A stretch of 64,000 nucleotides of DNA from Octopus sinensis. Its lineage: Eukaryota. The translations under genes were made by a program, and so were the position numbers. Below are positions 45,640 through 60,664 of this stretch, one piece after another. Below the pieces are notes generated by a model. It searched no databases. It had not been told where the DNA came from and saw only the letters and a program-made list of their open reading frames with translations. The number at the start of each line of letters is the position of its first letter. Position 1 is the first letter of the stretch. The stretch is from contig NC_042998.1 in assembly GCF_006345805.1 (NCBI RefSeq), positions 149,916,001 through 149,980,000 of the forward strand, written 5' to 3'.

Positions 45640-46360
45640 AGAAGAAGAAGAAGAAGAAGAAGAAGAAGAAGAAGAAGAAGAAATAAAGAATATAAGTTTT
45701 AGCTTGAAGTGATGACTGCATGCTATCCTTATATATTTGTATTAGTCCATCCATGAAGAATGAGGTAGAAAAAAGAAGTATGATTAACGTGGAGATTGCA
45801 TATTAAGATGCGTTTTGAATTTTTCAATAACATTATTCTCCTTGTTAATTCTTTCTTGTGTGGTGATTCCGTCTTTACATTGGTAGAAGGGGAATATGTA
45901 AAATTTGGGATTTTTGTCTTTAGCGCATGAGTCTATGTGGCTACTTAGTGGAATTTGACGGTATTCTCGGTGATTTATTTGCTCTTTGTGGACCGCTACT
46001 CTTTTACGCAAAGGGAGGCTCGTTTGTCCAACATAATTATGTTGACAACCGGCGCATGTGAGGACGTAGATAAGGTTCTCGGAGGAACAGGAGAAGTTGG
46101 TCTTGATTTTAAACTTAGTTCCTTGTTTGAAGATAAATTCAGAGCCTTCAAGTAGGAAGGGGCAGGTGCCACAGTTTGGGCGTGCACATTTTTTAGCTGA
46201 TGGGGGTGAATGTGGTGTGTGAAGTTTGGCATTTGTCAAGAGTTTTTTCAAAGATTTATGTTGCCTTTTACATTTGAGGATTTTGTGTGTATTGATAATG
46301 TTTTTCATTTTTGGGTCTGTTGACAGTAGAGTGAGGTTTTGTATGATTGTGGTGTATTGT
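44780..46360 (-). mobile_element. Penelope-like element 3' fragment with GIY-YIG endonuclease ORF (45784-46308)
   Basis: CARPNCGTC..FSCSSENLIYVLTCAGCQHNYVGQTSLPLRKRVAVH..HIDSC: LIY..YVG GIY-YIG motif with PLE-type Cys/His residues. Degenerate HHR-like motif downstream at 44929-44970 (-). Left boundary uncertain. Confidence 0.85.
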
Positions 46361-46364
46361 GGTG

Positions 46365-46470
<106 letters not shown>

Positions 46471-48663: not shown

Positions 48664-48709
48664 ACACAACAGAACAAGTAAAGTTTCTAACCCTAGGTAT
48701 ATAGTAAGG

Positions 48710-48766
48710 CCTGCTGATGAGAGTAAGGGATGTTATCTCTCAAAATTCGAAATCAGTTGATCCAGG
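48710..48766 (+). ncRNA. Type I hammerhead ribozyme within a ~280-bp element (48680-48960)
   Basis: cctg-CTGATGA-gagt..attc-GAAA-tca-gt-tga-TC^cagg. AUC triplet. Stem I 5' strand (aggcctg) identical to the 58.6-kb HHR. Confidence 0.8.
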
Positions 48767-48967
48767 TATATTTATCGCCCCATTCTGTGGCTTTATGCCG
48801 AGATGGTAATTTAATTTATTTGCTTGTTGCCTGATTACTGTTGTGCCTGTTGCATTTCCATTAAAATGGTGGTCTATTAGAGGAATTTTCGACTCTGATT
48901 TTTACATCTATGCTGGCACCTCGTGTGACCTCAATTATAAATTAATTATTAAATTTTAGATATGCAC

Positions 48968-53415: not shown

Positions 53416-55014
53416 CAGTGGGAGGAAATAAATATTCGTAAATGTCAAAATTCTTTATTTATTTAATTTCTAATGAACATAAATGGGATATACCAATACT
53501 ATATTTGCATACACATGCATAAACTAAGAATATACAAAAGAAACTAATAAATTATAGTAACTAAGGAATTTATATACAATCATAAATATTTAGGGGTGAA
53601 AAAATTATTCGTACAGAATAAATTTATGATTTTCTATGCCACAAAATACTGTTAAAATAATTTTTTACTAGAACTTTCTCGCTCGTTCCAATAATCTTAT
53701 CAGTTGTCATTTTTAAGTGTCAAAACGCTAGCTTCTTCATTCAGCACTGAGACAACATAAAGTAGTATCATAATAATGGCGAAAAGTAAAGAACTCACAA
53801 ATACAGTGAAAGACTTCATTATTGAACAGTGGAAAGCAGGTAAAAGTTACAGGAAAATATCAGACACCTTTTGTATTCCATTTTCTACCATATCTTCATT
53901 TATTGAAAGATATAAAAAGTCGGGAACTGTTGAAAACAGAATAAGATCCAGTGCACCATGCAAGATTTCCTCTAGATCTTTAAGAAAAATGAAGTAAGGA
54001 ATCGAAAAAAAAACGCAATGATCACTAGAAAGGAGTTGCAAGAAGATTTATTAGCTTCAGGGAATAGTGTTACACTACGGACAATCAGCAATGAACTTCA
54101 TAGGAATGAACTGAAGTTACGCTCTCCTAGAAAAACTCTGCTGTTGACTAGAAGGCATAGAGATGCCCATTTAAAATTTGTTTATGAACATAAAGATAAA
54201 CGTGATACATTCTGGGAAAATGTTCTATGGACAGACTAGTCGAAAATTGAATTGTTTGGACGAAATTCGCGTAGACATGTTTGGAGGAAAGATGGTACCG
54301 CCTATTCGCCGAAAAACACAATTCCTACCATAAAGTTTGGAGGTGGCAACATCATGGTGTGGGAGTTTTTTCTCTGCAAATGGTACTGGCAATTTACATG
54401 TGATAGATGGTAGAATGAATGCAGAGATGTACCAAAATATTTTGAACAATAATTTATGGGACTCTGTAGAAAAGCTCCAGTTTTGTGAAGGGTGGGTTTT
54501 ACAACGGGATAACGACCCTAAGCACACAGCGAAGTCTACCAAAAAATGGATTGTCGATCACTATATAAAATTATTAGAATGGCCATGCCAGTCACCTGAC
54601 TTGAACTCCATTGAAAATTCGTGGCGTTATTTGAAAATTAAAATTCATTCAACGTGCATTCAAGATTTGAAGAAAATTTGTCAAGAAGAATGGGAAAAAA
54701 TGTCTAAAGAAACATGCGAGCCATTGATTAAGAACTACAAGAAGAGATTGGTTGCAGTGGAACTGAATAATGGTTATGCTACGAAGTATTAAATCAGAAT
54801 TATCAGTCATTTATGCTCTGTACGAATACCTTTTTCACCCCTAAATATTTATAATTGTATATAAATTCCTTAGTAACTATAATTTATTAGTTTCTTTTGC
54901 ATATTCTTAGTTGATGCATGTGTATGCAAATATAGTATTGGTATATCCCATTTATGTTCATTAGAAATTAGATAAAGAATTTTGACATTTACGAATATTT
55001 ATTTCCTCCCACTG
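53416..55014 (+). mobile_element. Full-length Tc1-family DNA transposon (DD34E), ~200-bp TIRs, TA target
   Basis: TA^cagtgggaggaaataaatattcgtaaatgtc ... gacatttacgaatatttatttcctcccactg^TA. Long TIRs with internal repeated aaa.tattcgta sites (IR/DR type). Confidence 0.95.
53776..54792 (+). pseudogene. Tc1 transposase pseudogene
   Basis: MAKSKELT.. HTH region; WTD*SK, QRDNDPKH-(34 aa)-SPDLNSIENSW, GYATKY end. In-frame stops and frameshifts. Confidence 0.92.
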
Positions 55015-55039: not shown

Positions 55040-58000
55040 AACTTAGATAGACTTAGATATGTTTCGACCAAAGATTGGTCCAGGCCATGTCTAACTTAAT
55101 AGCACCACCTGATAGGATTATCTAAATCCTGTTTAAGTCAAGTTTTGTTTATGGTCCATTCAATTAGTGAGTTTTTGTTGGGTGAGTTGTATCCAATTAT
55201 GGGTGGCTTATCTGGTATTCCTTGAAGGAATCTATCCAGACTCCGTTTAAAGTTGATGGGATCCTTTTCCTCTTTGATCTCTTTCGGGACAATGTTAAAT
55301 AGGGCAGGGCCTGTTAAGGAAAAGAAATTATGTTGCAGTGTACATATATGCTGTGATCCTGAATTGGGCAGGGGACGTATGGCCTGTGGTCCCAGTCGTG
55401 GATGAACGTTGAAGCTAATGTTCAGGTCGCTTGGGCAAAGTTGGCGGTATATTCTCCACATCGTACAAATGATGTACCGCTCACGGTGGCGCTGGAGAGA
55501 GAGTAGAGATTCAAGGCTTTAAGGTGGTCCCAATAATCGAGAGCAGCCATGCCTTCAATTCGTTTTGTGAGTGCCCTCTGAATTGATTCAATCCTCGAGA
55601 TGTTTTGTCTTGTATGGGGAGACCACAGTGGGCAGCAGTATTCGAGGTGTGGCCGTACAAAGGAGGAGAAAAGTGGTATGATGACACCTTGTTCTCTGGA
55701 CCGGAAGGTTCTTAAGATCCAGGAACTCATCCTACGAGCTATATCGACCATATTGTTGAAGTGGGCATTCCAACTGAGATTGTCATCAACAATTACGTCC
55801 AGGTCTCTGATATTGTTAGAGGCTGTGAGCGGTTCCCCTGAAGGAAGAGAGTATGGCTGTTTTATTGTGGACTTTCTCCCAAAATGCATCAGCTCAAATT
55901 TTCCCTCGTTCAGTTGCATTTTGTTTGTCTGCCCATTGACTCACAGCATGTAGATCAGACTGGAGTTGAGTTCGGTCTGCTTCTTCATTGATGATTTGCT
56001 GGAGCTTAGTGTCATCAGCAAATATTTTCACTTTTCAGGAATGTACGACACTGGAAAGGTCGTTTATATAAATTATAAAGAGGAGCGGGGTCAAAACATT
56101 CCTCTGGGGGACACCGCTGGTGACTTTTGCTGGGCTTGAGTGGACTCCCTCGACTACATGTTGTGTTCTATTCGCCAGGAAATACTTGATCCAGTGTAGA
56201 AGCTTTCCACGGATTCCAACATTTGCCAACTTTGAGAGTAGGATATTATGGCCAACCCTGTCGAACGCTTTACTGAAGTCAAGATATATGACATCAGAGT
56301 GCGAACCTGTTCCCAAGGCTTTAAGTATATCTTCAATGTGGTGTAAGAGCTGTGTTAGACAGTCCCTGCCACAGCGAAAGCCATGCTGATTTGCATTTAG
56401 GAGTTTGTGGGTCTCCAGGAAGTCAGCTATCCTTGATCTTAACACTCTTTCAAACACTTTAATGATGTGGGATGTGAGTGAGATTGGGCGATAGTTGACT
56501 GCGAAATCCGGGATGACAGACTGGGATAGAAGCTGTTTCAGTATATAACCTGAGTCTAACGAATTTCTCCAGAGGTTGGTCAGAGGGACTGCAAGTTGGT
56601 GTCTACATTTCTTCAGGAGACTAGCGGGGAATCTATCAGGGCCTACAGCAGAATAGTATTTGACTTCATTTATTGCTGCTATGATGTCAGAGGCAGTGAA
56701 TGTTATGTCTGAGATTTTATGTTGGGTATCAACTTCATTCGTTTCTCTTACGTCAATATCAGTGGGAACACTAAAGACAGAGCAGTATTGTTTCTGCAGT
56801 ATTTCTGCCATTTCTTTAGCATCGTGTTGTGGAATGCCGTTATCATCAATCAATGGCCCAATGGGTGAGACAGTGGTTCTATGCTTATTTGCATAAGAAT
56901 AGAACACTTTTGGGATCTGTTTGATGTTTTTGATTACCCACTGTTCCTCCACAGCTCTTTGATTTTCAATGGAGGTTTTCATGTCTGTCTGCAGATGAAG
57001 ACTTTCTAACTCCAGCCTTTTCCTTGTTGTTGAATGTGGATGTTGTATGTGGGAATATTTTAATTGGTTGACTTTTTTATTGAGTCTTTTGATGCGCCTG
57101 ATGAGTGTTTTTTTTTCTTTTTAGGGAGCCGATTTCTGTTAGTGTTAGTGGATTTCGTAGGAGCGTGTTTTGAGCATGTATAGGTGACAATGTTCTCAAA
57201 GTGCAGCCATGCGGTCTCATTTGGGTGGAATTCAGAGTAAAAGACCAGTCGGTGAAAGACAGATCCTTTCTGATTGCTCCCCAGTCCGCTTTGTGGAAGT
57301 TTATGTTGTCAAATGAATGCTATGGAGTGGGATTGGTTGGTTTGGTTTTTATATGTCGGGAATTAAAATTGCAGAGTACCATGTCGTGGTCTGAGACGGC
57401 AGTTTTTTCAATTGAAATACTGTGAATAGAGCTAGAGTGATCCAAGATCGTTTTATTCTGTACTGTTGGTTCGAGCACTAGCTGAGTCAGGAAGAATTTA
57501 TCCATTAGATTAAAGAGGAATTCTGCTGCTGCTTTATCTGATGTAGAGCATTTGCCTAACTTCAGAGTATTTGTGGGCCAGTTTATATGAGGGAGGTTAA
57601 AATCACCCATCACTAGTATGTTTCCGGAGTTGTATTTTTGAAGGAAGGACTTGATTTTGTTAAGGCACTCTTCAAAGCACTTTAGAGGTGCTTGGGGAGG
57701 CCTGTAAAGACCAGCAATGATTATGTCTTTGGCTTTGTTGAACAGTGATATAGATTCACAATAGCCATTGGAAAATATGTTCTTGGCATCAAGTGAAAAG
57801 GAGTCCCACCCTTATTTCGGTCTGTGCGATCTGCACGAACGATGGTGAAATCTTTTATTTTCACCTCGGCATCCATATGTGTGTTGTTTAGGTGAGTTTC
57901 AGTAAGGATAAAGAAAGGGAAGCAATGTGTTATTTCGGCAAGCCAACTCTCTATATATGGGATCTTCCATTTTTGGGCAATGATTGATAGGTTGATGCTA

Positions 58001-58450
58001 CGTATATTTAACAGGAATGTCGAGGTAAGGTTGGTTTGATGTTTGCGTTGTTCTAAGTTATGTTTTATGTTGTTCAGTGGTAACAATGTGGGTAGTTTTT
58101 TTTATTTAGCTGTGTGTGTTTGATTTTCTAGTTGATAGTGGGTGTATGGTCCTTGTGATTTACATAAATGGTTGCTGATAGCTCGTTGGATCTCCTGGCT
58201 TAGGTCGGGCTTCATATTTTCTGGGTAAGTCAGTAAAAAAGAGTTGCCTCTTTGGTTTGCCATTTGATCAGAGGATACATAGTTCATGTTTATGTTATTT
58301 GATGTTATGGCTTTTTCATGGTTCTATCTTCGTTGTTTGATTGTAGGAGGTGAAATGTGGTTGTATTTTGTTGTTGTTGTCGTAGGTCTTCTCTGTTACT
58401 GTTTATATTTATTTTGCGATCATTTTGTGCCCTTCAGATGGTGGTGGTTG
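55040..58450 (-). mobile_element. Near full-length CR1/L2-group LINE (APE endonuclease + RT), frameshifted
   Basis: APE: ILTETHL, MGDFNLPHINW, SDHDMV. RT: NYRPISLTS, QHGFR, YLDFSKAFD, SGVPQ, IFADDT (56008-56025). C-terminus RPHLEYCCPLWSP, FKRSLDRFLQGIPD. Short atctaagt tail. Confidence 0.93.
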
Positions 58451-58453
58451 CAT

Positions 58454-58490
<37 letters not shown>

Positions 58491-58633
58491 ATTTATATAG
58501 AGGGCATTATACATACATGCCAGGAGGCATTATACATACATGCCAAACGCTAAGAGGGACAATCAGTCATTTCTACCAAAAATATTACTAATCCCACCGA
58601 TGCAATTTTTCAAAGTAAGACATTTAAAAATAT

Positions 58634-58681
58634 AGACCTGTATCACAGTGATTTCATACTTACGTAATCATCAGCAGGCCT
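58634..58681 (-). ncRNA. Type I hammerhead ribozyme (copy 1)
   Basis: Minus: aggcctg-CTGATGA-t-tac-gtaa-gta-t-GAAA-tcac-t-gtga-TA^caggtct. 7-bp stem I, AUA triplet. Confidence 0.82.
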
Positions 58682-59108
58682 GAATGTATTATAAATAAAC
58701 AACGACCCTGCCTCGCTTAAGCCGATCAGCTAACTGATCAACATCAACGAAGCACATGGTGAGTTTATATATATTACATCCGGGTAAATGGCAAACTTTT
58801 ACGAATTGCATTTCGGGAGAGGAAAAGTTTTTTCGGAATAAAAATTTAGCAATTAAGGACAACTACTAATAAGGAAAACTTAACAAGAAATTGTCAGGTA
58901 GATAGCGTAAAAACCTCATAAGAGAAAAAATTTCGAAAATAATTATTTCTTATTGAACATATTAATTTATATATAGAGGGCATTATACATACATGCCAGG
59001 AGGCATTATACATACATGCCAAACGCTAAGAGGGACAATCAGTCATTTCTACCAAAAATATTACTAATCCCACGAATGCAATTTTTCAAAGTAAGACATT
59101 TAAAAAAT

Positions 59109-59156
59109 AGACCTGTATCACAGTGATTTCATACTTACGTAATCATCAGCAGGCCT
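59109..59156 (-). ncRNA. Type I hammerhead ribozyme (copy 2)
   Basis: Identical motif 475 nt from copy 1. Confidence 0.82.
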
Positions 59157-59680
59157 GAATGTATTATAAATAAACAACGACCCTGCCTCGCTTAAGCCGA
59201 TCAGCTAACTGATCAACATCAACGAAGCACATGGGTGAGTTTATATATATTACATCCGGTAAATGCAAACTTTTACGAATTGCATTTCGGGAGAGGAAAA
59301 GTGTTTTCGAATAAAATTTAGCAATTAAGGACAACTACTTAATAAGGAAAACTTAACAAGAAATTGTCAGGTAGATAGCGTAAAAACCTCATAAGAGAAA
59401 AAATTTCGAAAATAATTATTTCTTATTGAACATATTAATTTATATATAGAGGGCATTATACATACATGCCAGGAGGCATTATACATACATGCCAAACGCT
59501 AAGAGGGACAATCAGTCATTTCTACCAAAAATATTACTAATCCTATATATATATATATATATATATTAATTCACAATAGTAAAATGACAATAAAAGAACG
59601 AGACCTCTATGTGATGAAAATAGAGGAATTTATATGTGTGTGTGTGTGTATACATATATACATATATTGTGTGTGGTGTA

Positions 59681-59716
<36 letters not shown>

Positions 59717-59781
59717 TGTATGTATGTATGTATGTATCTTATATTATATATATATATATATTATATATATATATATATATA

Positions 59782-60664
59782 TGCGGTCATCTTATAAATG
59801 ATGCGGTTTTTCAATTGCCTGAACTAAAAGTCGATGGGGGACTGGATAAATTACCTGCACCAACTTGCTATAAAAGGAAATAGTAATTTTACCTTGTACT
59901 TATTCTTAGCGCAAGTTTTGAAGGATGTTTTTCGATTTCAACAGTTATTTTTTTAGAAGCTATAATGTAAATGACAAAAGGGCATATTCGGCATATTTTA
60001 CTTTATAAGTTCAATAAAGGCTACAACGCAAAATAAAGTGCAGTATATGGGAATCGGACAATAAGCGTAAGCCAAAGTCAACGGCGCTTCCAGAAATTCT
60101 GAGCCGGAAACTAGAGCCTAGAAGATGAGCCTCGTCCTGGAAGGTCTGTAGTACTCAACGACGACGTCCAGTAAACCCTGGTGGAACAAAACCCATTGTA
60201 ACTGCGGAGAAACTTAGATTTAATCACTCAAGTCAGTGCTAGAAGAAAAACGACTATCTTTGGTTTCAAGGCGAAAAGTGTTTTTCTATCAGGATAATGC
60301 TTGGCCACATACAGCAAGGATGACATTCCAAAGGCTGGAACAGTTTGAATGGGAAATGATGCCCCACCCACCATATTCCTCGGACATTACCCCATCTGAT
60401 TATTATTTATTCCGCAGTCTTCAAAATCATTTGGACGAAAAAAATATAAATTCTGTAGACGAGGTCAGAACAGTACTGGAGAAGTACTTTTCGTCACGGA
60501 CAAGTGAATTTTGGAAGAGGGGACTTGCAAGTCTACTAGATAGATGGAAGAGCATAGTAGAAAATTAAAGAGAGCATATTTTGGTTTAAAGAGGAACTTG
60601 GTTTATCTTAATTTTGAAAAGTAAAAGTAGTATAAAAAACCGCAATATGTATGTGATGACCCAA
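59782..60664 (+). mobile_element. Internally deleted mariner (DD34D) element
   Basis: Imperfect ~30-bp TIRs (tgcggtcatc..gcggttttt / aaaaaccgc..gatgacccaa). N-terminal HIRHILLYKFNKG; FYQDNAWPH-(34)-PHPPYSSDITPSDYYLF. About 880 bp, lacking the middle. Confidence 0.9.

Follow-up and report, generated by a model that had tools for sequence, protein, structure and literature searches.

Introduction

Among the described systems, the closest to the locus analyzed here are the non-LTR retrozymes of animals, for which Penelope elements have been proposed as helpers in the available text of the original account (Cervera and de la Pena, 2020; PMC7229834). When a target duplication is present in animal non-LTR retrozymes, it is longer than 4 bp. 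A survey of vertebrates, as far as its accessible part goes, reports unit lengths of 51–972 bp and argues that retrozymes are non-autonomous Penelope derivatives, on the evidence of co-occurrence and pLTR homology, local tandem amplification being suggested (Li, Clavereau, Pollet, 2026; 10.64898/2026.07.22.740005). Penelope elements themselves are described in the part available as forming tandem and inverted copies, carrying a tail on one end only and targeting microsatellites (Craig, 2021; 10.1101/2021.04.23.441226). In the accessible sections on the Anolis Penelope element, its protein nicks AT-rich DNA on both strands and initiates at two internal sites of the RNA, the interval between which corresponds to the tail; in vitro, uncut RNA was the preferred or main substrate and the element's own hammerhead was not needed (Frangieh, 2024; PMC11167929). 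The available parts of this literature name as open questions how animal retrozymes return to DNA and how the tails and inverted copies of Penelope elements arise.

Here, we describe a young, non-coding hammerhead repeat of Octopus sinensis that is probably inserted into TA microsatellites by a Penelope-like RT/endonuclease which it borrows and which would read round a predicted circular monomer from two sites. The class to which it would belong, animal non-LTR retrozymes, is already known; its two-end insertion footprint appears to be new, and a literature search covering mainly openly accessible papers found no cephalopod retrozymes or two-ended retrozyme insertions.

Hammerhead Array in the Window

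The window, that is, the whole stretch analyzed, comprises 64,000 nucleotides (NC_042998.1, positions 149,916,001 to 149,980,000, forward strand). TRF detected in it a tandem array (58494–59543, period 473, 2.2 copies, 98% matches), and a type I hammerhead scan, which covered the entire window on both strands, gave three matches. Two of these lie in the array and are on the minus strand, with C3 at 59149 and 58674 and H17 at 59116 and 58641. This agreed with the preliminary description, made from the sequence alone, of a hammerhead multimer of about 2.2 units, and two complete type I motifs were present. The predicted cuts proposed there, 59116/59115 and 58641/58640, were recovered at the same positions by this independent scan, with a spacing of 475 nt. 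The array itself was real, with its 3′ boundary to be moved from 58494 to 58490, where it merges into (TA)n. The 475-nt unit holds from cut to cut in the window copy and is not the usual length of the family, in which 68 of 158 near-full units measured 479–481 nt. Since contigs of independent runs also carried single extra bases relative to the window copy, the latter is probably short by homopolymer losses. The features are as follows, with unit positions numbered from the predicted cut in the hammerhead sense:

58490–59543, minus strand: whole insertion, one-armed, 2.2 units, with a fixed type A 3′ end at ~58490 and 5′ truncation at unit position 46 (59543)
58641–59115, minus strand: predicted cut-to-cut monomer, 475 nt in the window copy (family mode 479–481)
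59109–59156, minus strand: type I hammerhead 1 from the motif scan, predicted cut 59116/59115, stem I covariation in the sister family
58634–58681, minus strand: type I hammerhead 2 from the motif scan, predicted cut 58641/58640
58963–58975, minus strand: internal copy of end site A (unit 141–153), TA-rich, directly 3′ of the 96–137 hairpin, putative RT start site
58844–58849, minus strand: internal copy of end site B (unit 267–272), at the 3′ foot of the 247–270 hairpin, putative second RT start site, not used by the window copy
58979–59020, minus strand: predicted hairpin from a 21-nt internal duplication, which is single in the sister family
58723–58745, plus strand: empty 23-nt site (unit 371–393), duplicated by a 1.7-kb non-LTR element in other copies
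59198–59220: second empty 23-nt site of the window copy
58454–58489, strand not assigned: (TA)n target adjoining the element at its 3′ end
59544–59566, strand not assigned: (TA)n target adjoining the element at its 5′ end

The units are tandem and non-coding, with one hammerhead each and a GC content below 50%. No ORF of at least 120 aa was found inside the array, nor the RT–EN frame of an autonomous Penelope-like element.

The third hammerhead of the window (C3 at 48714) lies in a segment on the plus strand (48702–48965), and its stem I resembles that of the array family. That segment is a single 5′-truncated copy of an older family, ending in (TATC)n and not forming an array; its family gave 41 matches, the others being mostly 71–82% identical. 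A 3′ fragment of a Penelope-like element, with cysteine linker and GIY-YIG (Pfam E 5e-6), was located at 45784–46470 on the minus strand. Adjoining the array there are remnants at 55138–58101 (minus), 54334–54792 (plus) and ~59780–60580 (plus), which we take to be broken EN/RT frames of LINE type, a fragment resembling Tc1 and a mariner-like remnant.

A Young Repeat Family Dispersed in the Genome

The exact 41-nt hammerhead core occurred 1,284 times genome-wide and 0 times in the control, and a looser pattern gave 2,248 matches, in which the U at the foot of stem II faces U, A or G. A search with the unit returned 1,012 candidates, of which 38 were scored; these contained 193 matches, mostly 95–100% identical and located on many chromosomes. 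Matching contigs were also present in two independent runs (5,235 and 853). A contig of 511 nt corresponds to about one unit plus a k-mer; its run is only guessed to be RNA, and a circle or a tandem would fit it equally well. The array is thus one copy of a young, dispersed, protein-free repeat family and not a local duplication; with dispersed copies, no control match and contigs in independent runs, local duplication and assembly artefact, which the preliminary description had named as refuting it, were excluded. The retrozyme-like character proposed there was borne out by tandem non-coding hammerhead units that are dispersed and highly self-paired, and the structure together with the predicted hammerhead supports the assignment of the family to animal non-LTR retrozymes.

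In order to analyze the ends, 79 non-redundant loci were used, selected by similarity to the window copy or by the hammerhead pattern: 19 of 30 loci from the unit search (the other 11 overlapped others), 40 fetched loci (24 completing the 27 loci that came first in the exact-core listing, and 16 from the unit search) and 20 variant-core loci taken from the loose-pattern matches. T>G was unusually common among locus-fixed changes (13 of 78, and 11 of 49 among rare ones). A-to-I editing written back into DNA was considered and discarded, A>G accounting for only 10 of the 78 fixed and 3 of the 49 rare alleles. Another type of hammerhead, with a CUGAAGA core and a longer stem III, was observed in the flanks of three loci (L261, L262 and L264).

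Hammerhead Core and Predicted Folding

Both array motifs contain the core CUGANGA/GAAA/UH with three stems, stem I being open, and they were as compact as previously described (stem I of 7 bp; stem II of 3 bp with a GUAA cap). A feature absent from that description is a U.U mismatch at the base of stem II (10.1–11.1), which is unpaired in this way in the window copy and in all 1,284 exact cores; A–U and G.U variants at this position occur in the family. Stem III is indeed a near-palindrome with one central base, and the 1-nt loop attributed to it is not forced, 4 bp with a 3-nt loop being possible. Rfam reported no hammerhead in the array, either at gathering threshold or at E ≤ 10, so that the hammerhead call rests on the direct scan, on the 0 matches of the control and on covariation.

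The monomer unit folded much better than its shuffles (z −6.4 linear, −5.4 circular), and as a circle the hammerhead strand reached −121.2 kcal/mol vs. −97.8 kcal/mol for the opposite strand. In the predicted fold stem I had a pairing probability of at least 0.9, while in the predicted circle the values were ~0.25 for stem II with its U.U and ~0.02 for stem III. Stem III was predicted at −10.1 kcal/mol as an intermolecular duplex vs. +0.8 kcal/mol as a hairpin. According to these models, action of the hammerhead as a dimer is plausible, and a monomer fold exists among the predictions as well. The axolotl motif HHR_Amex2, which has the same U.U, is described in the available text as cutting weakly alone and better as a dimer (PMC7229834). 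Dimers of Xenopus retrozymes showed no cleavage in eight of nine cases.

Two other candidate features of the unit were examined and rejected. A D-arm-like stretch at about unit 380–400, seen by eye, suggested a tRNA-like head, and ARAGORN returned 0 genes. Purifying selection on the core was considered as well, none of the 78 fixed alleles falling in the 13 positions of the core (~2.3 expected), in loci that had been chosen via the core.

Two Fixed 3′ Ends Inserted Into (TA)n

The 3′ ends of the copies fell at two internal sites, A and B, about 120 nt apart and each fused to (TA)n: A ends lay at unit 148–153 in 58 of 67 cases and B ends at 267–272 in 46 of 55. Complete two-armed insertions, with the arms meeting 5′ to 5′, accounted for 48 of the 79 loci, and all 48 combined one A with one B end, no A+A or B+B insertion being found among them. 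One-armed loci were 20 of type A (including the window copy) and seven of type B; the remaining four were a duplicated A+B locus, one extending beyond the fetched stretch and two ending at unit 75–78. These last two (L202 and L206) are short copies whose ends lie close to the strand with which site B is predicted to pair, and a minor third end at this position is possible. In the duplicated locus (L031), a small two-armed insertion occurs as two complete tandem copies.

Both flanks were (TA)n in 69 of 77 loci, and 27 of 49 inversion joints had an overlap of 1–7 nt, at BLAST resolution. Sites A and B are each located directly 3′ of a predicted hairpin. No target duplication was visible, and one would be unreadable within (TA)n; no copy carried a poly(A) or repeat tail. 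Fixed 3′ ends at A and B together with variable 5′ ends indicate the footprint of Penelope target-primed insertion. A simple fold-back origin of the inverted arm was rejected, as it would predict equal or variable outer ends. So was free permutation, which is ruled out for the 3′ ends; accordingly, the permutation analysis proposed in the preliminary description did not give random permutations, the 3′ ends being fixed at two internal sites. The circular template proposed there found indirect support (see below), but not through the argument from staggered ends, only the 5′ ends being variable.

The Probable Template of Reverse Transcription

Only two of 126 5′ ends lay within 3 nt of the predicted cut (1.9 expected) and eight within 10 nt (5.6 expected), and 111 of 127 arms were longer than 280 nt and thus crossed it. 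Since the enzyme would halt at the cut of a cut linear RNA and no pile-up of 5′ ends was found there, such an RNA does not appear to be the template; an apparent excess of 5′ ends at the cut site was gone once the ends were extended over the unit border. The distribution of 5′ ends was compatible with uniformity on 92 ends (KS p = 0.26) and departed from it on 126 refined ends (p = 0.009). This departure is caused by an excess at unit 395–445 (30 vs. 13.5 expected, in a region chosen after the fact), which would coincide with the place where the enzyme would meet the long hairpin.

Units differed by substitutions at 0.79% within loci vs. 2.90% between loci (158 units). The two arms of one locus agreed at 226 of 237 diagnostic comparisons, compared with 2,372 of 18,899 for arms of different loci. 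In 18 loci, 23 locus-private changes were fixed in all copies, 16 of them on both arms, and 68 haplotypes were distinguished in 78 loci. Private changes fixed in all copies and on both arms point to a one-unit bottleneck followed by repeated copying, for which a circle is the simplest explanation. Given mobilisation by a Penelope enzyme, a circular RNA template is quite probable. Variants present in only part of an array (34) are left unexplained by a single monomer; these partial or alternating variants could derive from dimeric circles, template switches, linear multimers or polishing errors.

Two kinds of arrangement were observed among such arrays. In four loci (L021, L055, L057 and L061), variants recurred in every other unit, a pattern that could be produced by a two-unit circle or by local duplication. 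A 13-unit array (L052; G000:C1:143651200-143660000) consisted of two known haplotypes in blocks of 4, 3, 2 and 4, a switching that may reflect template switching or a polishing artefact.

The alternative that survives best keeps the same Penelope machinery and start sites and takes as template an uncut linear multimer from an existing array, with a weak or idle hammerhead and no circle. It likewise predicts that no 5′ ends pile up at the cut, it is in line with the use of uncut RNA as main substrate in vitro in the accessible Anolis data (PMC11167929) and with the weak prediction of stems II and III, and it would account for the alternating or block-wise variants of L021, L055 and L052, although these are also explicable by dimeric circles or polishing errors. 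However, a mutation of the source unit would still need a one-unit bottleneck to become one of the 23 private fixed changes seen in 18 loci, against a background of 68 haplotypes in 78 loci, and arms reach 10–13 units when the median locus has only 2–3 cores. We consider this linear template unlikely, but worth keeping in mind, and favor the circular monomer.

Candidate Penelope Helpers

The genome holds young RT plus GIY-YIG frames of 775–781 aa, with (TA)n ends and a cysteine linker of Neptune/Nematis type, the clade being assigned from this linker motif. Autonomous RT plus GIY-YIG candidates with the same (TA)n target as the retrozyme are thus present. Two autonomous families had (TA)n ends and two ends ~30 nt apart, and in all five of their inverted loci in which both ends were visible (of 60 fetched) one end was tailed and one tailless. 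One of these two families carries a minimal hammerhead, also with U.U. In a young family of Penelope-like elements (L105–L109, L121–L150), the 781-aa frames are intact and the targets are (TA)n, and the motif scan found no hammerhead in it.

The retrozyme shares with Penelope elements two alternative 3′ ends, a tail on one end only and an inverted 5′-truncated arm. It departs from them in its tail of ~120 nt, which is outside the 30–40 nt expected and four times the ~30-nt tails of both autonomous families. No significant similarity was found between the unit and the ends of these two families (best p = 0.055 of four comparisons), and a candidate partner by pLTR homology, a 47-nt match of 74% identity (E 0.05), was lost after shuffling. 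Judged from these footprints, a helper of the Penelope-type class is well supported.

That another retrotransposon enzyme, through LINE twin priming or from a Naiad-type Penelope element, mobilises the family is improbable. It would accommodate the missing sequence link to the two Penelope families compared and the many LINE remnants of the window, yet the copies have neither a poly(A) or repeat tail nor a visible target duplication. In LINE twin priming the inner priming is variable, and the two fixed outer ends fit the Penelope tail rule instead. Naiads, too, have a preference for (TA)n and are present in octopus, according to the available text (10.1101/2021.04.23.441226), but a Naiad partner would leave the main model as it is. 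Finally, the array might be a satellite, a DNA duplication of local origin or an assembly artefact, its hammerhead being a fossil or due to chance. The tandem form and a microsatellite-rich long-read assembly with homopolymer errors might lead to this reading, which is extremely improbable and at family level refuted by dispersed copies with unique flanks and fixed ends, by the 5,235 and 853 contigs of independent runs and by covariation.

A Sister Family and a 1.7-kb Insert

A sister retrozyme family, 72% identical and with a unit of 478 nt, was reached via its 1.7-kb parasite (L289:2163-2640, L264 and L281). It has a longer stem II and lacks the 21-nt duplication, and both ends seen in it lie at homologous positions, again with a ~120-nt tail. 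Comparing the two families, double changes preserved seven predicted pairs, including two of stem I, and 18 predicted pairs were broken.

The 1.7-kb element contains a CCHC ORF1-like frame and no RT in that copy. In four fully read loci of different architecture it was found at unit 371–393, flanked by a 23-bp duplication; as there is one per locus and architectures differ, these insertions look independent. Among 30 fetched of 36 copies of its 5′ end, five follow the unit site and 25 follow a closely related motif elsewhere, in the sister family or other repeats. Its 3′ end was not family-specific (one of the first 30 of 382 matches). In at least three repeats, this putative non-LTR element (L216, L257, L258, L259 and L273; L260–L289) is inserted after a 17-nt motif that they have in common; tandem stacks of the element occur as well. 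Both of its target sites are empty in the window copy. We assume a likeness to the Tx1 clade of target-specific non-LTR elements, presumably reflected in the CCHC ORF1-like frame, the 23-bp target duplication and the use of one target motif common to several repeats. The element differs from that clade in that the copy lacks an RT and in its target, the retrozyme hairpin.

Proposed Mechanism and Comparison With Known Systems

From the family, its ends, its target and the sharing of haplotypes, all directly observed, we infer the following steps of mobilisation. Tandem copies would be transcribed, and the hammerheads would cut the RNA, probably helped by pairing as dimers, after which a host ligase would close a circle of ~480 nt. 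A Neptune-type enzyme would nick both strands of (TA)n and prime one cDNA at A and one at B, each running 0.1–13 turns round the circle. The two cDNAs might then join back to back through a few bases of overlap, producing a two-armed copy, and a single cDNA fixed alone would give a one-armed copy such as that of the window.

A bolder version, to which we give an even chance, is that a dimeric Penelope enzyme primes both nicked TA strands on one ribozyme-made circle, at two structure-defined sites 120 nt apart, with the two products rolling at once; that this is the general origin of Penelope tails, inverted copies and animal retrozyme arrays; and that the conserved hairpin of the circle is the landing site of a site-specific retrotransposon. 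If so, the latter would be a parasite of a parasite of a parasite. This family brings together, in one genome, an RNA that is short and defined, a defined target, two mapped start sites and candidate enzymes that are young, so that a single in vitro reaction could address both how retrozymes return to DNA and how Penelope tails and inverted copies arise. It would also supply a compact natural substrate for rolling-circle reverse transcription.

The octopus family resembles the animal non-LTR retrozymes, in the parts of their account available (Cervera and de la Pena, 2020; PMC7229834), in having non-coding units in tandem, each containing one type I hammerhead, as well as a GC content below 50%, high self-pairing and no LTR, PBS or PPT, and its U.U at the base of stem II is shared with axolotl HHR_Amex2. 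It differs from them in unit length (~480 nt vs. 170–400), in its (TA)n target without a visible target duplication, and in its two fixed 3′ ends and two-armed insertions, which the accessible text of that account does not describe; expression and cleavage were demonstrated for those retrozymes, whereas in the octopus family the cuts are predicted. The vertebrate survey, in its available part, covers no molluscs and contains no end analysis; unlike the retrozymes there, the octopus family has no pLTR homology to the two Penelope families compared, but a direct insertion footprint (10.64898/2026.07.22.740005).

With Poseidon of Anolis (Frangieh, 2024; PMC11167929) and with Neptune and Naiad (Craig, 2021; 10.1101/2021.04.23.441226), as described in the accessible texts, the family shares tandem and inverted 5′-truncated copies. 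Further likenesses to Penelope-like elements, within the same sources, are the tail on one end only, the microsatellite target, the two putative internal RT start sites and a hammerhead upstream of the 3′ end. Unlike those elements, the retrozyme has no ORF, its tail measures ~120 nt instead of 30–40 nt, and it forms arrays of up to 13 identical short units.
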